IMG/VR virus record: IMGVR_UViG_3300035666_000153
Span: 1 to 24,634 of that record
From: a virus
Lineage: Duplodnaviria; Caudoviricetes
DNA length: 24,634 nt
Strand: one strand, 5' to 3'
The position numbers and the translations under genes are program-made. Position 1 is the first letter of the stretch; every line of letters begins with the position of its first letter. The notes under the pieces were generated by a model that did not search any database, was not told the DNA's origin, and saw only the letters and a program-made list of their open reading frames with translations. Shown here piece after piece: positions 7,763 to 15,019 of this stretch.

Positions 7763-7806
7763 AAATTAAATTTTTTTATTTCATTTAGCTATCGTATATT
7801 TACTAT
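7763..7806 (+). promoter_or_regulatory. putative tandem promoter P2
   Basis: AAATTAAATTTTTTTATTTC...CGTATATTTACTAT. Confidence 0.6.
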
Positions 7807-7834
7807 ATAACATTAACAAACAGATCTTTGAACA

Positions 7835-8686
7835 TACTGTTATCCATTAACGAGGCTTCGGCTAAGTTATAAATAACATTCGGCTGCATATAGTCGTTAA
7901 ATAAACCGGGAAACCGGTATAAAGTGAGATCAATTGCTAAAATGATCTTGCGCCTTGTAAAAGAGGTCGAGTATGCACACGGAATATCTATCAACCTTAA
8001 TTATCGAGGGTAACACTGTAGAGAAAGTGGTTGATAGACTCGGTGACTGTGGGTCATTGAGTTGAGCTTGGAAAAGCAATAAGAATAATCCGTACGGGTA
8101 CATGCAAAAAGTTTGGTTATCCGATCAAATTATTGCGTTACTCATTGTTGGAACGTAGTCTTAAAGCCGAAAGGCATGATAAAAAACAGGTGGTGCTGTT
8201 GTTATCCTATACAGTTGTTTACCAAAGCGCGGTATCGAAGATTACTAACAACATCGAGGTAGGGATACTTCATAAGGTAGTTGAATATCTACCCTGACAA
8301 AATCGGGGCCGGTTCAGCGGTGAGCCACTACCTTTACAATCCACAAGCTAAACTTTGCCTTTTGACGCAAATCAAATTAAACAAAGCCAAAGCGCTCACC
8401 AGCTACGGACGAAAGATGCCTACACAGTAACGAGTTGTTCGTTGCACTAAAAGGCCGCAAGCCAATTAGTAGTTTTCCGAAAAGGTCGTAATCTCGCAAG
8501 GATTAGTCAGCACGGCAGTGTTGAACGATTGGAGTAAGAAGAGAGTAGTCCAAATAAAAGTAGCTCAAGGGGTGATTAGTCTAACTAATCGGCATTGTCG
8601 GAATAGTTTTCAAAAGAAACTGGACAAAGGGGGAAACAAACATAATCCTCGCAAAGATTCGACACACAAAGCTATAGTCTCAGGCT
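7835..8686 (+). ncRNA. giant structured ncRNA, GOLLD-like (~850 nt)
   Basis: no credible ORF; GC-richer than flanks; many tetraloop hairpins (CCGG-GAAA-CCGG, GCC-GAAA-GGC, GGC-CGCAA-GCC, ATCT-CGCAAG-GAT); size and position beside a phage tRNA array; 3' end AGAGTAGT...GTAGCTCAA...AGTCTCAGGCT recalled as GOLLD-like; boundaries approximate. Confidence 0.7.
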
Positions 8687-8694
8687 TTTATTTT

Positions 8695-8737
8695 TACATT
8701 AAAGGTTAGTGTGGGTTCGATTCCCACGAATGTAGCA
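8695..8737 (+). ncRNA. tRNA minihelix (acceptor stem plus T arm only)
   Basis: TACATT...GTGGG-TTCGATT-CCCAC-GAATGTA-GCA. Confidence 0.55.
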
Positions 8738-8745
8738 TAATTACG

Positions 8746-8755
8746 CATATTTATA
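8746..8755 (+). promoter_or_regulatory. CATATTTATA phage promoter-like motif upstream of the leader
   Basis: also at 248, 2567, 3391, 10555, 12506 and 13060, always shortly before a start codon. Confidence 0.55.
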
Positions 8756-8770
8756 AACGTAAAATTAATC

Positions 8771-8914
8771 ATGGCACGAATATTAACACATACAGCAACT
8801 TGGCAAAACGAACGTAGAAGTACGTTGCTGGTGGGGTATTGCTTTAGTTCGATTAATGCGGACGTGCAGGGCAAACCGAAAATACCAGGGCTATGTGATA
8901 CTAATTTAGGATAA
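8771..8914 (+). CDS. putative attenuator leader peptide (47 aa, all 20 amino acids)
   Basis: MARILTHTATWQNERRSTLLVGYCFSSINADVQGKPKIPGLCDTNLG*; contains ACCAGGGCT (8884-8892), complementary to the 5' arm of the terminator. Confidence 0.75.
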   Translation: MARILTHTATWQNERRSTLLVGYCFSSINADVQGKPKIPGLCDTNLG

Positions 8915-8936
8915 ACTCTAAATAAAAAGAAATTAC

Positions 8937-8970
8937 AAAAGCCCTGGTTCAAAAAATCAGGGCTTTTTTT
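8937..8970 (+). terminator. intrinsic terminator (attenuator) directly before the first tRNA
   Basis: AAAAGCCCTGGTT-CAAAA-AATCAGGGCTTTTTTT. Confidence 0.88.
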
Positions 8971-8972
8971 AT

Positions 8973-9044
8973 GGTGATGTAGCTGAGATGGATTAGCGTA
9001 AGTTTGAAAAACTTAAGAGAGAAGATCGTTACTTCTCATTACCA
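8973..9044 (+). tRNA. tRNA-Phe(GAA)
   Basis: GGTGATG/CATTACC acceptor; TAAGT-TTGAAAA-ACTTA; atypical T-loop ATCGTTA. Confidence 0.88.
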
Positions 9045-9062
9045 CATGAAAAAACAATAGAA

Positions 9063-9182
9063 ATGAAACGAATACTGGTAAAAATAGTAAAAAATATTCT
9101 TATTGGAAAAAGAAATCAACGTCTTAATCCAATTACATTTAAGATTGCAAATTTTATTTGTTTAAGAATACCAAATATCTAA
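9063..9182 (+). CDS. small basic hypothetical protein (39 aa)
   Basis: MKRILVKIVKNILIGKRNQRLNPITFKIANFICLRIPNI*. Confidence 0.4.
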   Translation: MKRILVKIVKNILIGKRNQRLNPITFKIANFICLRIPNI

Positions 9183-9212
9183 AAATGAAACGAAAACGAA
9201 AACATATTAATT

Positions 9213-9286
9213 ACCTCCATAGCTCAATTGGCTAGAGTAGCTGACTCTTAATCAGTGGGTTCCGAGTTCGAGTCTCGGTGGGGGTA
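9213..9286 (+). tRNA. tRNA-Lys(CTT)
   Basis: cloverleaf; GCTGA-CTCTTAA-TCAGT. Confidence 0.95.
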
Positions 9287-9298
9287 CTAAAAGTAGAT

Positions 9299-9371
9299 AC
9301 CCTCGTAGCTCAACTGGTAGAGTACGTGACTTTTAATCATGGGGTTGTGAGTTCGAATCTCACCGGGGGTA
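9299..9371 (+). tRNA. tRNA-Lys(TTT)
   Basis: cloverleaf; CGTGA-CTTTTAA-TCATG. Confidence 0.95.
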
Positions 9372-9444
9372 CATAATAAATAAAATAAAACTAAATTAAA
9401 ATGAAAAAAATATTTGATGCCTTGTAAGACTAAAACCCTTACAA

Positions 9445-9756
9445 ATGAAATCTATTCAAGAGTATACCACTACTGTAAACAGAAGTGTTTATAACAAGGT
9501 ACACAAAGAAAGACACGCTCGTTGCTCATATTGCAAATGGCATGGTCCACATTCAGAGAATGATAGTTGGAAATGTTATTACAAAAGTGACTACAACGGC
9601 AAAGCTAAAGAAAAATATCCTAATTGGAAATTAGTTTCTAAAAATAAAAAACAGTGGATGAAAAAAACACTGATTTTTGAAAATGTTACAAATTCCCATG
9701 GTCGTTGGACTTACTGGATTAACATTAAATGGCATAATAAAATTAGGCCAAAATAG
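9445..9756 (+). CDS. basic CxxC protein with YPNWKLVSKNKKQW motif
   Basis: 103 aa; CSYC; preceded by an 8-codon uORF and a hairpin. Confidence 0.75.
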   Translation: MKSIQEYTTTVNRSVYNKVHKERHARCSYCKWHGPHSENDSWKCYYKSDYNGKAKEKYPNWKLVSKNKKQWMKKTLIFENVTNSHGRWTYWINIKWHNKIRPK

Positions 9757-9783
9757 ATCATTGACATATTGGTATTAAACACA

Positions 9784-9854
9784 TCCGGCTTGGTGCAATG
9801 GCAGCATGATAGTCTCCAAAACTATTGATATCAGTTCGAATCTGATAGCCGGTG
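9784..9854 (+). tRNA. tRNA-Trp(CCA)
   Basis: ATAGT-CTCCAAA-ACTAT; ATCAG-TTCGAAT-CTGAT. Confidence 0.92.
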
Positions 9855-9859
9855 CAATT

Positions 9860-9932
9860 GCTCTCGTAGTTCAATGGATTAGAATAGGTGACTACGGATC
9901 ATCTGATAAGCGTTCGAATCGCTTCGAGAGTA
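9860..9932 (+). tRNA. tRNA-Arg(ACG)
   Basis: GGTGA-CTACGGA-TCATC. Confidence 0.92.
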
Positions 9933-9939
9933 CGAATAA

Positions 9940-10009
9940 GGTCGAGTTGGTCGTGGCGGCCGGTAGATCTGCAAAATCTATGGCGTGAGTTCAATTCTCA
10001 CCTTGACCT
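9940..10009 (+). tRNA. tRNA-Cys(GCA)
   Basis: TAGAT-CTGCAAA-ATCTA; U73; short D loop. Confidence 0.88.
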
Positions 10010-10043
10010 CTTAATTATCGAGAAGTAGTACAATGGTTAATAT

Positions 10044-10119
10044 CTGGATATGGCCGAGTTGGTGAGGCACTAGTTTTGGGAACTAGACCAGGCAGGATCG
10101 ACACCTGCTATCCAGACCA
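10044..10119 (+). tRNA. tRNA-Pro(TGG), encoded CCA
   Basis: CTGGATA/TATCCAG; CTAGT-TTTGGGA-ACTAG. Confidence 0.92.
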
Positions 10120-10139
10120 AGGTTCGAATTTTTATAAAT

Positions 10140-10212
10140 GGGCTGTTGGTATAGTTGGCTAACACACTTGCCTTGCACGCAGGAGTCGGGGATTCGAGTT
10201 CCCCACGGTCCA
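10140..10212 (+). tRNA. tRNA-Ala(TGC)
   Basis: G3:U70; CTTGC-CTTGCAC-GCAGG. Confidence 0.94.
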
Positions 10213-10220
10213 CGCCGGTA

Positions 10221-10293
10221 AATTGTAAGTAGGTTTCCATATAAACTAACTTTCAGGTTTGAGTCGCAGCTGTACCTTAAACAGCTGACAATT
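10221..10293 (+). ncRNA. unknown multibranched small RNA
   Basis: AATTGT/ACAATT closing stem; CAGCTGT-ACCTTAA-ACAGCTG hairpin. Confidence 0.45.
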
Positions 10294-10365
10294 AGAAGAT
10301 TAGCTCAGAGGCAGAGCATCGCCCTTACATGGCGAGGGTCGGGATTTCAAAATTCCCATCTTCTA
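10294..10365 (+). tRNA. tRNA-Val(TAC)
   Basis: TCGCC-CTTACAT-GGCGA. Confidence 0.92.
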
Positions 10366-10373
10366 CAACAATT

Positions 10374-10445
10374 GCGGGTATAGCACAACGGTTAGTGCTC
10401 TAGTTTTCCAAACTCGAGATGTCAGTTCGATTCTGACTACCTGCC
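10374..10445 (+). tRNA. tRNA-Gly(TCC)
   Basis: GCGGGTA/TACCTGC; loop TTTCCAA. Confidence 0.9.
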
Positions 10446-10455
10446 ACTTAACTTT

Positions 10456-10528
10456 TAACTACGATGGGCTAATATGAGGGTTCAAATCCCGCCGTTCCCA
10501 CTAACGAAGGATTGGTTTAGCGTAGTTT
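10456..10528 (+). ncRNA. unknown RNA with internal T-loop
   Basis: AACTACG/CGTAGTT closing stem; GGG-TTCAAAT-CCC. Confidence 0.45.
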
Positions 10529-10533
10529 TAAAC

Positions 10534-10557
10534 TGCTACATAGTGTAATGGTAACAT
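10534..10557 (+). pseudogene. 5' remnant of a disrupted tRNA (Gln-like)
   Basis: TGCTACA-TA-GTGT-AATGGTA-ACAT; acceptor partner TGTAGCA at 11333-11339. Confidence 0.75.
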
Positions 10558-10580
10558 ATTTATATAAAAAATAGACTTAT

Positions 10581-11243
10581 ATGCACTTTATAATATATCG
10601 CATCACTAATATTATAACTGGAACTTTTTATATTGGAGTGCACAAAACTAAAAATATAAATGATACGTATTTAGGCTCTGGTACTCTTATAAGAAAGGCA
10701 ATAAGAGAATATGGTAAAGAAAATTTTACTAAAGAAATTTTAGAAGAATTACAAAGTGAAGAAGAAATGTTAAAGAGAGAAGAAGAAATTGTCACTAAAG
10801 AATTTATACAAAATAATGATGTTTATAATATTATGGTAGGCGGAGGATATGGTAGTAGAGAAAAAAATGGTCTAACTTTTATTAATAAGAAACATAGTAA
10901 AGAATCAAGAAAAAAAATACAAGAAAAGCGCAAAGGAAAAAAGCTCAGCGAACAAGTTAAATTAAAAATGTCTAAAAATCATTTTTCTAAAAAAGATCAA
11001 GAAGCACATAGGGAAATAGCAAAAAAGGCCTCAAGATCTAGAAAGAATATTAAAGACGGTCTTTCTGCAGAAACAAAAGAGAAGATAAGAAATGCTATAC
11101 TTATTAAGACAAGAAAAGCTGATTATATATCTCACAATAAAGGTTTAAAAAGAGAAAAAATAAAGTGTCCTTTTTGTAATAAAGAAGGATCGATGAATAC
11201 TATGAAAAGGTGGCATTTCAATAATTGTAAAATTGTCCCGTAG
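10581..11243 (+). CDS. GIY-YIG homing endonuclease (Seg-like) with NUMOD3 repeats and C-terminal Zn finger
   Basis: IIYRITN...FYIGVH...YLGSG...YNI; KKHSKESRKKI; CPFC...WHFNNCK. Confidence 0.92.
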   Translation: MHFIIYRITNIITGTFYIGVHKTKNINDTYLGSGTLIRKAIREYGKENFTKEILEELQSEEEMLKREEEIVTKEFIQNNDVYNIMVGGGYGSREKNGLTFINKKHSKESRKKIQEKRKGKKLSEQVKLKMSKNHFSKKDQEAHREIAKKASRSRKNIKDGLSAETKEKIRNAILIKTRKADYISHNKGLKREKIKCPFCNKEGSMNTMKRWHFNNCKIVP

Positions 11244-11308
11244 TAGAACGGTTATTATGCCAGATTTTGGCTCTGGAGATGAAGGTTCGATTCCTTCCGG
11301 GACAACCA
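11234..11308 (+). tRNA. tRNA-Gln(TTG), encoded CCA; overlaps the endonuclease stop codon
   Basis: TGTCCCG/CGGGACA; CCAGA-TTTTGGC-TCTGG. Confidence 0.93.
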
Positions 11309-11320
11309 TATCTATATTAA

Positions 11321-11340
11321 TTCGACCCCTTCTGTAGCAT
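11321..11340 (+). pseudogene. 3' remnant of the disrupted tRNA
   Basis: TTCGACC-CCTTC-TGTAGCA-T. Confidence 0.7.
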
Positions 11341-11349
11341 CAATAAATT

Positions 11350-11433
11350 GGAGAGTCCTAAAGGAGTAGTTAGCTGTCTTGAAAACAGTGAAGTCGGTAA
11401 CACGGCGTGGGGGTTCGAGTCCGTCACTCTCCG
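11350..11433 (+). tRNA. tRNA-Ser(TGA)
   Basis: GGAGAGT/ACTCTCC; GCTGT-CTTGAAA-ACAGT; long variable arm; atypical D arm. Confidence 0.88.
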
Positions 11434-11435
11434 CT

Positions 11436-11515
11436 AAATCTCTGGGTGACTAAAAGACGTACCTGACTTTTAACCGCCGAACCTGGGACCGGTAGGGGTA
11501 GCACATAGGAGATTT
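11436..11515 (+). ncRNA. unknown structured RNA
   Basis: AAATCTC/GAGATTT closing stem; TAAAAG...CTTTTA internal hairpin. Confidence 0.45.
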
Positions 11516-11523
11516 TTTTACAT

Positions 11524-11595
11524 GGGTCTATAAGCTTTAAGGTGAAGCGTAAGTTTGTGGCACTTAAGAACTCGGTTCGATACCGTGATAGACCC
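11524..11595 (+). tRNA. tRNA-His(GTG)
   Basis: G-1:C73; TAAGT-TTGTGGC-ACTTA. Confidence 0.93.
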
Positions 11596-11596
11596 C

Positions 11597-11697
11597 AAAA
11601 ATATGTGTGCTGGTGCTGCCGACGGGCGCGTTGATAGTTCGATTCTATCTAATAATCTGGTGAACGAAATGGTTCGATTCCATTAACATATATTTTT
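11597..11697 (+). ncRNA. unknown RNA with two T arms
   Basis: AAAATATGTGT/ACATATATTTT closing stem; GATAG-TTCGATT-CTATC and AATGG-TTCGATT-CCATT. Confidence 0.6.
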
Positions 11698-11702
11698 ATT
11701 CT

Positions 11703-11788
11703 GGAGAGTAAAACAGTGAGGTTGCTGTCACCGCCTGCTAAGCGTGTGGTACCCTAAAAAGGTATTTGCTTCGATGCAATGCTCTCCG
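11703..11788 (+). tRNA. tRNA-Ser(GCT)
   Basis: GGAGAGT/GCTCTCC; loop CTGCTAA; long variable arm. Confidence 0.85.
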
Positions 11789-11792
11789 CAAA

Positions 11793-11846
11793 CCCAGTAT
11801 GACGCACATCTTGGTCCGAGTGTGATGGAAAGCTGGTATCGGACCC
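11793..11846 (+). ncRNA. small pseudoknotted RNA
   Basis: CCAG/CTGG and CACAT/GTGTG stems; loop GGTCCGA pairs with 3' TCGGACC. Confidence 0.5.
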
Positions 11847-11850
11847 TATT

Positions 11851-11923
11851 GCTTACTTAGCTCAATGGTCAGAGCATCCGCCTGATACGCGGAAGGTTGG
11901 AAGTTCGAGTCATCCAGTAAGCA
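11851..11923 (+). tRNA. tRNA-Ile(GAT)
   Basis: TCCGC-CTGATAC-GCGGA. Confidence 0.93.
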
Positions 11924-11929
11924 CAATAC

Positions 11930-12001
11930 GCTTTCGTAGCTCAGAGGCAGAGCAGGAACCTGTTAAGTTCAAGGTCGAGATATCGTAATTCTCCGAAAGC
12001 G
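11930..12001 (+). tRNA. tRNA-Asn(GTT)
   Basis: loop CTGTTAA; G73; atypical T-loop ATCGTAA. Confidence 0.9.
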
Positions 12002-12008
12002 CAAACAA

Positions 12009-12090
12009 GCCGACGTCGCATAGTGGCAATTGCAAGGGACTGTAAATCCCTCCTCGTAAGAGTTCGTAGGTTCGAGTCCTACCGGCGGCA
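12009..12090 (+). tRNA. tRNA-Tyr(GTA)
   Basis: AGGGA-CTGTAAA-TCCCT; variable arm. Confidence 0.94.
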
Positions 12091-12104
12091 CAGAAAATAT
12101 ATAG

Positions 12105-12140
12105 TACGTATAGTCAATTTTATAGATTATATTTACTATA
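12105..12140 (+). promoter_or_regulatory. putative internal promoter in the tRNA array
   Basis: TATATTTACTATA identical to the core of P2 (7795-7807). Confidence 0.45.
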
Positions 12141-12152
12141 CAATAAACAAAT

Positions 12153-12224
12153 GCTCCTGTCATCTAATGGTTAGGATGTCAGATTTTCGATCTGAAAATG
12201 CGAGTTCGATTCTCGTCGGGAGTA
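12153..12224 (+). tRNA. tRNA-Glu(TTC)
   Basis: TCAGA-TTTTCGA-TCTGA. Confidence 0.93.
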
Positions 12225-12229
12225 CAATC

Positions 12230-12303
12230 GGTCTATTGGTGTAATGGTTAACATGTCTCACTGTCTATGAGAAGACGTCTCGGTTCGAGTCCGTGATAGA
12301 CCG
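12230..12303 (+). tRNA. tRNA-Asp(GTC)
   Basis: TCTCA-CTGTCTA-TGAGA; G73. Confidence 0.92.
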
Positions 12304-12305
12304 CT

Positions 12306-12374
12306 AAAAACTACCTGCTAGTTCAACCAGCGCATGACGTGGAGGTGACTACAGTGGAGAGTAGGTAGTATTTT
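12306..12374 (+). ncRNA. unknown small RNA
   Basis: ACTACCTGCT/AGTAGGTAGT 10-bp closing stem. Confidence 0.45.
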
Positions 12375-12377
12375 AAT

Positions 12378-12463
12378 ACCCTCATGGTGGAATTGGGAGT
12401 CACGCTTGGCTTAAGATCAAGTGGGCCGTAAGGTCCGTGTCAGTTCGAGTCTGACTGGGGGTA
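12378..12463 (+). tRNA. tRNA-Leu(TAA)
   Basis: CTTGG-CTTAAGA-TCAAG; long variable arm. Confidence 0.93.
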
Positions 12464-12518
12464 CAAAAAAAGATAGACACGTTGGAGTGTTTTTCTTAAA
12501 TGTCTCATATTTATTAGT

Positions 12519-12959
12519 ATGAAACAAATAGATGAAAAACATTTTAGACAAGTTTGTCAAGAATCTAATTCTATGGCAGAAGCTGCAGTTAAATTAGATT
12601 TACATTTTAATACCTTTAAAAGGTACGCAATTAAATTTGATTGTTATATGACAAATCAATCAGGAAAGGGAATGACAAAAATCGTTCCACCTAAAATTGA
12701 TTTACAAGAAATTTTGGAAGGTAAACATCCACATTTTCAAACGTTCAAATTGAAAAATAGATTATTAAAAGAAAAAATAATCGAAAATAAATGTTCTGTG
12801 TGTGATATTGAAGAATGGAATGGTAAGAAATTAAATATGGAATTAGACCATATTGATGGGAATAGGACCAATCATAAATTGGAAAATTTAAGAATATTAT
12901 GTCCTAATTGTCATTCACAAACTGATACATATCGAGCAAAGAATATAAAAAGAATATAA
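12519..12959 (+). CDS. HNH homing endonuclease with N-terminal HTH
   Basis: CSVC...ELDHIDGNRTNHKLENLRILCPNCHSQT. Confidence 0.93.
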   Translation: MKQIDEKHFRQVCQESNSMAEAAVKLDLHFNTFKRYAIKFDCYMTNQSGKGMTKIVPPKIDLQEILEGKHPHFQTFKLKNRLLKEKIIENKCSVCDIEEWNGKKLNMELDHIDGNRTNHKLENLRILCPNCHSQTDTYRAKNIKRI

Positions 12960-12962
12960 TTT

Positions 12963-13035
12963 AGTGGTGTGGCGCAATGGTTAGCGCAAGATGCTTATAC
13001 CATCGAGGTTACGAGTTCGAGTCTCGTCATCACTA
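12963..13035 (+). tRNA. tRNA-Ile(TAT)
   Basis: AGTGGTG/CATCACT; GATG-CTTATAC-CATC. Confidence 0.9.
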
Positions 13036-13082
13036 CCGGGTCACTTTTTGTACCTTGAACATATTTATAATAAATAATAGAT

Positions 13083-13709
13083 ATGCCAAGGCAAAAACAC
13101 AAGTACCATTTCATTTACAAGACAACAAATCTTAATAATGGAAAGTACTACATAGGAATGCATTCGACTTCTAATTTTAATGATGGTTATTTAGGAAGCG
13201 GAGACAAACTTAGAAGATCTATAAGAAAATATGGTAGAGAGAATTTTAAATTAGAGATCTTAGAATTATTTAACGATAGAGAATCGTTAGCTAAAAGAGA
13301 AAGAGAATTGGTGAATGAAGGTTTACTAAAAGACCCGATGTGTATGAATTTGGCTCCCGGCGGAGTAGGTGGTATTTTTAATGAAGATCATCATGAAAAA
13401 ATGAAAAAAGGTGCTTCTAAGCGACTTAAATTAATGTGGAAATCTAAAGATTATAGAGATAAGTTTGTAGTACTAGGATCTCAGACATTTAAAAGATTAC
13501 ATAAAGAGGGTAAAATTAAATATGATACGTTCACTAATAAGACCCATTCAGAAGAAACAAAAACAAAAATAGGTAACGCAAATGCATTAAAACAAAGTGG
13601 ATCATCTAACTCTCAACATGGAACGATGTGGATCACAAATGGAGTTGAGGATCAAAAAATAAAAAAAGATTCTAAAATACCAGAAAATTGGTATAAAGGA
13701 AGAAATTAA
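13083..13709 (+). CDS. GIY-YIG homing endonuclease (Seg-like) with NUMOD3
   Basis: FIYKTTN...YYIGMH...GYLGSG; KTHSEETKTKI; WITNG. Confidence 0.92.
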   Translation: MPRQKHKYHFIYKTTNLNNGKYYIGMHSTSNFNDGYLGSGDKLRRSIRKYGRENFKLEILELFNDRESLAKRERELVNEGLLKDPMCMNLAPGGVGGIFNEDHHEKMKKGASKRLKLMWKSKDYRDKFVVLGSQTFKRLHKEGKIKYDTFTNKTHSEETKTKIGNANALKQSGSSNSQHGTMWITNGVEDQKIKKDSKIPENWYKGRN

Positions 13710-13714
13710 TACAT

Positions 13715-13788
13715 TGCGGGGTAGAGAAGTGGTCATCTCGTGACTCTCATAAGGTCAAAATCGCTAGTTCGAATCTAGCCCACCGCAA
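13715..13788 (+). tRNA. tRNA-Met(CAT), initiator-like
   Basis: TGCGGGG acceptor, GAG/CTC D stem, loop CTCATAA; lacks the three G:C anticodon-stem pairs. Confidence 0.85.
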
Positions 13789-13790
13789 CA

Positions 13791-13924
13791 AAACACTGAC
13801 TGACTCTCAGGCTGGTTGTCGACAAACCGAATGAGAAAAAAGCAGTAGCACCCTCGGCCGATGCATCGTAAAACTTCAATAAAGCCGTTAAGATTGGGAC
13901 GAGACGGGTATCCCAACAGTGTTT
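13791..13924 (+). ncRNA. unknown structured RNA (~135 nt)
   Basis: AAACACTG/CAGTGTTT closing stem; ACTG-ACTCTCA...TGAGA...CAGT and TTGGGA...TCCCAA arms. Confidence 0.55.
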
Positions 13925-13929
13925 AATTT

Positions 13930-14001
13930 GGCACTATAGCTCAAAGGCAGAGCGCCTCATTCATATCGAGGAAGTTGAGATCTCAGAATTCTCTAGTGCT
14001 A
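13930..14001 (+). tRNA. tRNA-Met(CAT), elongator (or Ile2)
   Basis: GGCACTA/TAGTGCT; loop TTCATAT. Confidence 0.85.
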
Positions 14002-14006
14002 CACAA

Positions 14007-14080
14007 GGTCGATTAGTTCAGCTGGTCTAGAACACTTGATTTGTAATCATGAAACCTCGGTTCGAATCCGAGATCGACCT
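14007..14080 (+). tRNA. tRNA-Thr(TGT)
   Basis: loop TTTGTAA; CTCGG-TTCGAAT-CCGAG. Confidence 0.92.
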
Positions 14081-14082
14081 CA

Positions 14083-14244
14083 AAAATAGGAGGAGGTGGG
14101 CTTGGAAGTAGCCATCCTTTAAAGAGTTGTCCCCCCTGTGGGAGCGTACGGACAAAAAGTCAATATCCTAGGAAATCGTTATGGGATATCGCACGTAGGT
14201 CGTAACGAGCCTCGTATCTTGGTGTAACAACACACTCCTATTTT
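14083..14244 (+). ncRNA. 23S rRNA H43-H44 (L11-binding, GTPase-associated centre) mimic RNA with ~90-nt insert
   Basis: AGGAGGTGGGCTTGGAAGTAGCCATCCTTTAAAGAG...GTGTAACAACACACT matches 23S ~1051-1108; closed by AAAATAGGAG/CTCCTATTTT. Confidence 0.8.
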
Positions 14245-14247
14245 AAT

Positions 14248-14320
14248 GCGGAAGTAGCTCAATCGGTAGAGCGTTACTTTGCCAAAGTAGAGGTTGCCGA
14301 ATCGTACTCGGTCTTCCGCT
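14248..14320 (+). tRNA. tRNA-Gly(GCC)
   Basis: GCGGAAG/CTTCCGC, U73; loop TTGCCAA. Confidence 0.92.
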
Positions 14321-14324
14321 CGAT

Positions 14325-14426
14325 ATACAGCTGAATATGTGTGTGGAGTTGCAATCGTCGAAACATGTATTGAACATCATGCCGCCTGTCAGACTTCAAG
14401 ACTCGAGGAGACATGATTGCTGTTAT
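14325..14426 (+). ncRNA. unknown three-way-junction RNA
   Basis: ACAGC/GCTGT; AATATGTGT/ACATGTATT; ATCATG/CATGAT. Confidence 0.5.
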
Positions 14427-14431
14427 TATTT

Positions 14432-14503
14432 GGTCTCGTAATTCAATGGAAGAATGTCTCCCTTCTAAGGAGAACGTTGGGGATTCGAATTCCTCCGAGA
14501 CTA
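14432..14503 (+). tRNA. tRNA-Arg(TCT)
   Basis: TCTCC-CTTCTAA-GGAGA. Confidence 0.94.
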
Positions 14504-14517
14504 CAAAAATTAATATT

Positions 14518-14685
14518 ATGGTAGTAACATATATTGTAAATGTTATTTTTATTTTGTTTATTTTATTTATAGTATGGTTTATAATCTGTTCTATAATTTA
14601 TAGAGAGAAAGATGGTGATGATTTTTCAGGACAAAGTGATAGACAAAAAAAGAATGACGATTATAATACAGACTACTACCCATAA
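14518..14685 (+). CDS. small membrane protein (55 aa)
   Basis: hydrophobic N-terminus then acidic tail; start moved downstream of tRNA-Arg. Confidence 0.6.
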   Translation: MVVTYIVNVIFILFILFIVWFIICSIIYREKDGDDFSGQSDRQKKNDDYNTDYYP

Positions 14686-14691
14686 TAAAAT

Positions 14692-14774
14692 AGTCAGGTG
14701 GCGGAATGGTATGCGCAATGTGTGGGCAAGTAAAATCCACTTATCACTTACAGGTTCGAATCCTGTCCTGACTA
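14692..14774 (+). tRNA. tRNA-like element, undetermined anticodon
   Basis: perfect acceptor AGTCAGG/CCTGACT, D arm and T arm; aberrant anticodon arm GTGGG-CAAGTAAAA-TCCAC. Confidence 0.7.
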
Positions 14775-14776
14775 CG

Positions 14777-14898
14777 ATGACACGCACGACAACCTGGAAC
14801 GGGTCGACACTGAACAGGCTCTGTGAATGAACATAACAAGTACCTCACTTGTGCGTAGGTAAATTTCAAGCTTGTTTGACCGTGGGGAAAGGCCCACT
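14777..14898 (+). ncRNA. unknown pseudoknotted RNA
   Basis: AACAGGCT/AGCTTGTT and GGTCGA/TTGACC stems; loop GTGCGT pairs with 5' ACGCAC; GTGGG-GAAAGG-CCCAC. Confidence 0.5.
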
Positions 14899-14902
14899 TT
14901 AT

Positions 14903-14983
14903 GCCCCGATGGTGGAATTGGTAGACACACCGCACTTAGGATGCGGCGCTTCGGCAGTGAGAGTTCGAGTCTCTCTTGGGGCA
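14903..14983 (+). tRNA. tRNA-Leu(TAG)
   Basis: CCGCA-CTTAGGA-TGCGG. Confidence 0.95.
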
Positions 14984-15019
14984 CTGGGTTAATTTATCAA
15001 TAACTGCAAATAACATTTT

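Follow-up and report, generated by a model that had tools for sequence, protein, structure and literature searches.

The 24,634-nt viral DNA stretch analyzed here (the window) carries, directly upstream of a large tRNA array, a short leader open reading frame (ORF) that specifies all 20 amino acids and is followed by an intrinsic terminator. On the basis of sequence comparisons and folding models, we predict (probability, roughly 80%) that this leader acts as a transcription attenuator under ribosome control, senses the supply of nearly all aminoacyl-tRNAs, and likely controls transcription of the phage tRNA array. Comparisons across loci of related freshwater phages indicate that the element is conserved and is under selection for amino acid completeness.

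Layout and conservation of the leader

The leader ORF (positions 8771 to 8914, plus strand) comprises 47 codons and reaches all 20 amino acids by codon 36; codons 2 to 36 form the predicted sensing stretch. There are 32 distinct codons in the first 36 and 37 in all 47, methionine occurs as the start codon alone, and 24 of the 61 sense codons (AAG among them) are missing. Between the ORF and its putative target lies an intrinsic terminator (segments 3 and 4 plus a T run; 8937 to 8970, plus strand; -16.8 kcal/mol). Its stem (8937 to 8967) contains 13 pairs, the T run ends at 8970, and the first gene behind it, for tRNA-Phe, starts at 8973 (i.e., after a gap of 2 nt). Codons 38 to 41 hold the antiterminator strand (segment 2; 8884 to 8892, plus strand), which is the exact reverse complement of positions 8940 to 8948 (9 bp). 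The first-pass annotation had described this ORF with its codon counts, the 9-bp complement, and a terminator ending 2 nt before the first tRNA; our recount agrees with all of these, and the coordinates that it gave for the ORF, the two complementary strands, the terminator, and the tRNA start are correct. A ATATTTAT motif (8747 to 8754, plus strand) is a candidate phage promoter or initiation element. It is found no more than 40 nt 5' of the ATG in 18 of the 21 leaders compared, and the window as a whole contains 8 copies versus 5.3 expected (i.e., no enrichment). The leader peptide has no match in annotated phages, PHROGs, or Pfam.

Peptide, alignment, and DNA-pattern scans provided 21 leaders for DNA analysis (19 without two near-duplicates). 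Locus L041, where peptide, terminator, and array are present without an in-frame ATG, was left out of this set, and L009, L047, and L280 (the last without the leader layout) were dropped as false matches. Every one of the 21 leaders has an ATG-initiated ORF of 39 to 48 codons that is open through segment 2, a distance of 19 to 28 nt from the ORF end to the terminator arm, a terminator of -12.8 to -18.6 kcal/mol, and tRNA genes or a tRNA-Phe-like gene starting downstream; all 20 amino acids are present in 18 of them. In 20 of the 21 leaders, arm 3 of the terminator finds its best partner 37 to 47 nt upstream, within the last quarter of the ORF (for L020, a positional segment 2 with one mismatch was set by hand). 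Duplexes of segment 2 and arm 3 are more stable for cognate than for swapped partners (means, -12.5 versus -10.5 kcal/mol; 0 of 20,000 permutations were as good), and coordinated changes in segments 2, 3, and 4 occurred in four lineages (L043/L063, L032/L033, L024/L029, and L027). Two-sided changes were observed at 8 of 11 consensus terminator pairs (19 leaders). The 2:3 duplex outperformed those of codon-shuffled ORFs (at most 10 of 200) in just 12 of the 19 leaders. Two features that the earlier annotation had proposed to look for in related phages were thus found, i.e., a conserved short ORF at the heads of tRNA arrays (21 loci; 54 peptides) and covarying antiterminator and terminator arms.

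From the plain DNA alignment, RNAalifold recovered the terminator alone. The consensus fold of 17 codon-aligned leaders contains a small conserved hairpin inside the ORF (hairpin A; 8811 to 8826, plus strand; codons 14 to 19), the positions of which are paired in 12 to 16 of the 17. Hairpin B (8834 to 8877, plus strand; codons 22 to 36) is also conserved; it lies directly 5' of the antiterminator, ends before segment 2, and keeps its core pairs in 14 to 17 of 17 leaders, with few compensatory changes. It is a candidate RNA polymerase pause hairpin that might synchronize the ribosome and the polymerase. A further pairing had been suggested, in which positions 8828 to 8840 bind segment 2 (a 1:2 helix). 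This pairing does appear in the truncated fold of this stretch, but its register is not conserved; the upstream partners of segment 2 vary among the homologs, and we rejected the register as a family feature. No conserved 1:2 helix sequestering segment 2 in the untranslated leader was found.

The hairpins inside the ORF explain some of the fixed codons (ACG with CGT), as would be expected if the leader were a structured noncoding RNA or a constitutive terminator, with the ORF as a by-product of RNA conservation and the array transcribed from other promoters or through processive antitermination. The promoter-like and boxA-like motifs inside the array (described below) fit that account as well. 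We nevertheless regard it as very improbable, given that the ATG and a frame of 39 to 48 codons open through segment 2 are kept at all 21 loci, that amino acid completeness is far above column-matched nulls (see below), and that the terminator and tRNA-Phe are just 2 nt apart.

A leader directly upstream of tRNA-Phe is missing in three (L049, L053, and L058) of eight inspected loci anchored on that tRNA. The closest cultured relative by ThyA, Flavobacterium phage immuto_2-6A (57%; best among annotated phages), has by eye no such leader before its small tRNA cluster. A scan of genome contigs gave two matches (L280 and an 11-residue match, L279) and no credible cellular homolog, which is weak evidence of absence. 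In the near-identical relatives L018 and L019, compared with positions 8971 to 9045, the leader and terminator are the same and the tRNA-Phe allele differs, so that the leader stays in place while the tRNA genes that follow it are exchanged.

Amino acid completeness of the leader peptides

Protein searches, in which homologs were gathered by similarity to a 20-amino-acid query, yielded 54 distinct full-length peptides (mean identity, 48%) after 5 of 59 had been dropped (two N-extended peptides of 74 and 81 residues, a 57-residue duplicate, a 34-residue fragment, and a 1,189-residue false match). All 20 amino acids are present in 45 of the 54 peptides and at least 19 in 53; the nine incomplete peptides lack one or two amino acids, often Glu. 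Column permutation gave a mean of 27.6 complete peptides and a maximum of 39 (5,000 permutations). The complete set is already present upstream of the antiterminator in 42 peptides, versus 15.1 by column permutation. Simulations on the tree from a root with 20 amino acids gave 29.6 complete whole peptides (as many as the 45 observed in 1 of 600 simulations) and 17.6 complete upstream of the antiterminator (as many as the 42 observed in 0 of 600). Completeness is retained while positions move: Ala occurs in 53 of the 54 peptides, yet no column holds more than 19, and Val occurs in 51, with at most 20 in any column, so that both wander across five or more columns. Leaders L207 and L222, which were found by DNA patterns alone (i.e., without the peptide), contain all 20 amino acids in another order, and L195 contains 17. 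Between nearest pairs, single-copy residues differ less often than multicopy residues (58 of 476 versus 501 of 1,437, both directions counted), as they also do when seven fixed residue types are left out (47 of 201 versus 446 of 1,310). The rescue of changed single-copy residues elsewhere in the nearest peptide was modest (47 of 58 versus 39.7 expected).

Some positions are near-invariant (His7, Trp11, Tyr-Cys-Phe, and Pro36), and selection on the protein sequence is detectable although weak (pN/pS = 0.67; pN < pS in 128 of 136 pairs). Such features would suit a small peptide with a function of its own or one that arrests the ribosome as a nascent chain, with the terminator either ending the transcript or answering peptide-specific stalling. 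However, the residues that do not vary are rare ones present in single copy, as coverage of all amino acids explains too; L207 is equally complete and has the same switch despite another residue order; the peptide matches no family in Pfam or PHROGs; and segment 2 covaries with the terminator. We consider a peptide function of this kind highly doubtful.

The first-pass annotation had called the leader "pan-codon" and had proposed that it samples nearly every tRNA species. The latter proposal holds, in that 24 of the 26 anticodon types of this array have a cognate codon within codons 2 to 36 (Lys-CTT and elongator Met have none; the 26th type, Ser-GCT, was called by eye), and completeness exceeds both the column and the tree nulls. 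In this stretch, the chance of 20 amino acids in 36 codons of a single ORF is approximately 0.002 to 0.003 (six null compositions), and 7 of 4,002 36-codon segments of the window's own genes contain all 20. At least 32 distinct codons are likewise improbable against random codons (P = 0.0001 to 0.016) and occur in 0 of the 4,002 gene segments, but the count is ordinary once the peptide is fixed (P = 0.46 with uniform usage, 0.12 with genome usage, and 0.02 with pooled leader usage). Across the leaders, the number of distinct codons is not above the synonymous expectation. The pan-codon reading is ruled out by this ordinary count and by the 24 absent sense codons. Both codon families of Leu, Ser, Arg, Ile, and Gly are kept in 171 of 190 slots (141 to 146 expected), and G-ending codons are in excess in four-codon boxes (46% of 159 versus 12% of 979), in part because of pairing within the hairpins. 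By these codon counts, the term that fits the leader is pan-amino-acid and, nearly, pan-isoacceptor; pan-codon does not apply.

A 20-amino-acid ORF accompanied none of the generic terminators of this sequence type (0 of 162 distinct terminators from 121 loci). A search for the 2-3-4 pattern alone gave 68 distinct matches from 94 loci, not counting duplicates and matches less than 200 nt from the locus start; an ORF with all 20 amino acids was present in 5 of the 15 matches before tRNA genes, versus 0 of the 53 without tRNA. A short ORF of any composition was found in 14 of these 15, and one of the five complete ones is nearly identical to this stretch. Unrelated leader/terminator cassettes were also seen before tRNA genes of other large phages (in oriented coordinates, L225, 2441 to 2527; L188, 2446 to 2523; and L266, 228 to 326; also L213 and L230). 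In three of the four unrelated cassettes tested, the codons match the downstream tRNAs. The L225 leader has Val, Ala, or Ile at 13 of 17 codons and is followed by Val, Ala, and Ile tRNAs (P = 6 × 10^-8, the frame having been picked by eye from two), 12 of 15 codons match in L188 (P = 0.001), and 6 of 21 match in L266 (P = 0.007); the L213 leader showed no match to its tRNAs (5 of 26; P = 0.22).

Proposed switch and the downstream array

We modeled the RNA 3' of the ribosome, up to arm 3, with a footprint of +15 or +12. In this stretch, the 2:3 helix is kept for A-site codons 2 to 36 (+15) or 37 (+12) and is then lost up to the stop codon. With the +15 footprint, the last new amino acid appears at this boundary or one codon before it in 15 of 16 complete leaders; the exception is L059, where Arg first appears after the switch point. 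With no ribosome, the modeled probability of the 2:3 helix is 0.90 to 1.00 in all 19 leaders. When the full terminator is present, 3:4 dominates at equilibrium (0.94 in this stretch), and antitermination would therefore have to be kinetic. Since 1:2 is not conserved and 2:3 wins in the model, the untranslated leader is predicted to read through by default. In the same way, without an obligatory 1:2 helix, a stall at an early codon would also give read-through, which resolves a problem for a sensor of all codons. The covariation and the footprint model together place an antiterminator that is exclusive with the terminator where a ribosome can cover it. The attenuator logic of the first-pass annotation is thus retained in part: the footprint-constrained fold frees the antiterminator for stalls at codons 2 to 36, but in place of the trp-type 1:2/2:3/3:4 scheme, any lag is predicted to give read-through.

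In the mechanism that we propose, a ribosome keeping pace would reach codons 37 to 46 and cover segment 2, so that the terminator would fold and transcription would stop before tRNA-Phe. With a ribosome held at A-site codon 2 to approximately 36, or with none, segment 2 would pair with arm 3 ahead of the synthesis of arm 4, and the polymerase would continue into the tRNA array. As each tRNA species is represented by one or two codons, a mild shortage would affect the switch less than would a general slowdown or the severe loss of any one tRNA. Because the output is tRNA, tRNA depletion appears to be a more sensible signal than amino acid starvation, and the signal selected for would most likely be tRNA depletion in infection through demand, decay, or host tRNA-cleaving defenses. 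A more specific version, to which we give somewhat less than even odds, is a cis-acting "pangram" sensor of giant freshwater phages that reads the whole tRNA pool and induces the replacement tRNAs only upon destruction or depletion of any tRNA by the host. It would be an inducible, broad counter to tRNA-cleaving immunity, with related leaders retuned to the tRNAs downstream of them, and its codons would predict which tRNAs are under attack.

The predicted default of read-through without a ribosome would also suit an attenuator that senses translation rate or coupling in general (antibiotics, attack on ribosomes or elongation factors, or initiation failure), with completeness providing representative timing and the loss of single tRNAs not being the selected signal. 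One or two codons per tRNA would give low sensitivity in theory, as outlined in PMC1183508; a tmRNA lies directly upstream in three relatives; and a tRNA array of Anabaena is described as responding to translation antibiotics (PMC10272220). With a pure timer, however, there would be no need for each amino acid to be retained while positions move, for Leu, Ser, Arg, Ile, and Gly to be represented by both of their families, or for leaders to match smaller arrays, and we judge this alternative unlikely relative to a sensor of the aminoacyl-tRNA supply.

The array behind the leader (8973 to 14984, plus strand) contains 25 genes called by ARAGORN that cover all 20 amino acids, further tRNA-like genes, and three homing endonuclease genes (10581 to 11243, 12519 to 12959, and 13083 to 13709), which each have ATATTTAT upstream and apparently overlap or abut tRNA genes. 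Three genes are not in the ARAGORN set: a Ser(GCT)-like tRNA gene called by eye (11702 to 11789) and, both found by Rfam, a tRNA with a CAT anticodon (13930 to 14001) and a tRNA that has a long arm and an atypical anticodon region (14692 to 14774). A tRNA-Ile with a TAT anticodon, which is rare in bacteria, is located at 12963 to 13037 and occurs also in L020, L033, and L207; the leaders keep an ATA codon. A 103-residue ORF of no known family (9445 to 9756; 66% identical in L003) lies inside the array and is covered by low-depth RNA contigs. Non-tRNA spacers richer in G+C (13790 to 13930, 14085 to 14245, 14325 to 14430, and 14775 to 14900) look like small structured RNAs, and positions 14091 to 14127 are similar to part of some abundant RNA contigs of other organisms (perhaps 23S rRNA-like).

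The earlier proposal that the leader gates a complete array was borne out as to position and content, i.e., the leader stands at the head of an array that covers 20 amino acids; full control is uncertain. A promoter-like 13-mer (12128 to 12140, plus strand) 25 nt 5' of tRNA-Glu is a possible second entry that bypasses the leader. It is identical to a copy upstream of a GOLLD RNA (7795 to 7807, plus strand), the two exact copies compare with 0.24 expected, and its midarray position is common to L019, L024, and L029; it resembles the Bacteroidota -7 element. Full control by the leader may thus extend no further than the first part of the array, and the 13-mer could drive the second half independently. 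Motifs similar to the boxA consensus occur before tRNA-Trp (9756 to 9766; a similar one precedes tRNA-Trp in L007) and before the GOLLD RNA (approximately 7824 to 7833) and may indicate rRNA-type processive antitermination.

The GOLLD RNA is a separate upstream RNA of approximately 830 nt (7858 to 8686, plus strand; Rfam RF02032 at 8273 to 8686, 236.7 bits). Freshwater metatranscriptome contigs span 7858 to 8685 with adapter-marked ends at 7848 to 7858 and 8682 to 8685, and hence GOLLD appears to be a discrete RNA that stops before the leader; near-identical sequences are abundant in such contigs of several studies. The RNA contigs of seven runs do not cover the leader, and contigs cannot show absence or level. 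We discarded the idea of the leader as part of the GOLLD transcript or model, as the model ends at 8686 and the RNA contigs at 8682 to 8685. GOLLD was absent near the leader in five of five relatives' loci listed in full, and a tmRNA is located just upstream of the leader in three relatives; the leader therefore goes with the array rather than with GOLLD. The occurrence of GOLLD near phage tRNA islands has been noted before (bioRxiv 2024.12.08.627333). Between GOLLD and the leader, sequence and folding point to a tRNA 3'-half-like remnant (T-arm and acceptor-like strand; 8697 to 8738, plus strand) not called by ARAGORN or Rfam; it may be a disrupted tRNA gene, serve as a processing signal, or represent what is left of an att-like site. 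A host within the Bacteroidota is probable, given the ThyA relative, the A-rich start context lacking a Shine-Dalgarno sequence, and a promoter motif of the Bacteroidota type.

Relationship to known regulatory systems

It has long been asked why phages carry tRNA arrays, and a sensor wired to an array would state what the phage responds to. If the attenuator reading is true, leader-peptide attenuation extends to tRNA genes, to phages, and to an input of all amino acids, and the leader offers a 200-nt genetic reporter for the loss of any tRNA. Rfam contains no family for the leader element. We found no account of leader-peptide attenuation of tRNA arrays in the literature searched, and the supplements of a 224-motif survey (PMC5737381) could hold such a motif.

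Antitermination set by the charging state of tRNA, as proposed here, is also the principle of the T-box riboswitch. A T-box recognizes a single uncharged tRNA by direct binding and involves no translation of an ORF. No T-box match to this leader was found in Rfam at E values up to 1; the only hit was a subthreshold Thr_leader match on the terminator (26 bits; gathering threshold, 55).

A reason to induce phage tRNAs is offered by phage T5, the tRNAs of which offset host tRNA cleavage by PARIS AriB (PMC12409363). The abstract-level account of that system describes no leader-based induction (PMC12409363). The closest functional parallel is the trn L-array of Anabaena, a long tRNA array that is switched on in translational stress (PMC10272220; PMC8421152). 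It differs in that control is exerted by a protein repressor, TrcR, acting at initiation (PMC8421152), and the words "attenuat" and "leader" are absent from the main text of that paper.

In its proposed mechanism, the leader resembles the trp and his attenuators, which likewise have a short leader ORF and exclusive 2:3 and 3:4 helices and in which the relative progress of ribosome and RNA polymerase decides the outcome (as outlined in PMC1183508). Their leaders carry codon runs for one to three amino acids, whereas here all 20 are present, mostly once or twice, with no run for one or a few. Leader-peptide attenuators of enterobacterial amino acid operons include the multivalent thr and ilv leaders and that of pheST. 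The targets also differ, being biosynthetic or synthetase genes in those systems and phage tRNA genes here, and in the absence of a conserved 1:2 helix to sequester segment 2, this leader is predicted to permit read-through when untranslated. Judged from its sequence, the element would thus work like a trp/his attenuator but departs from that class in three defining features, i.e., the codon run, the conserved 1:2 helix, and the biosynthetic target.
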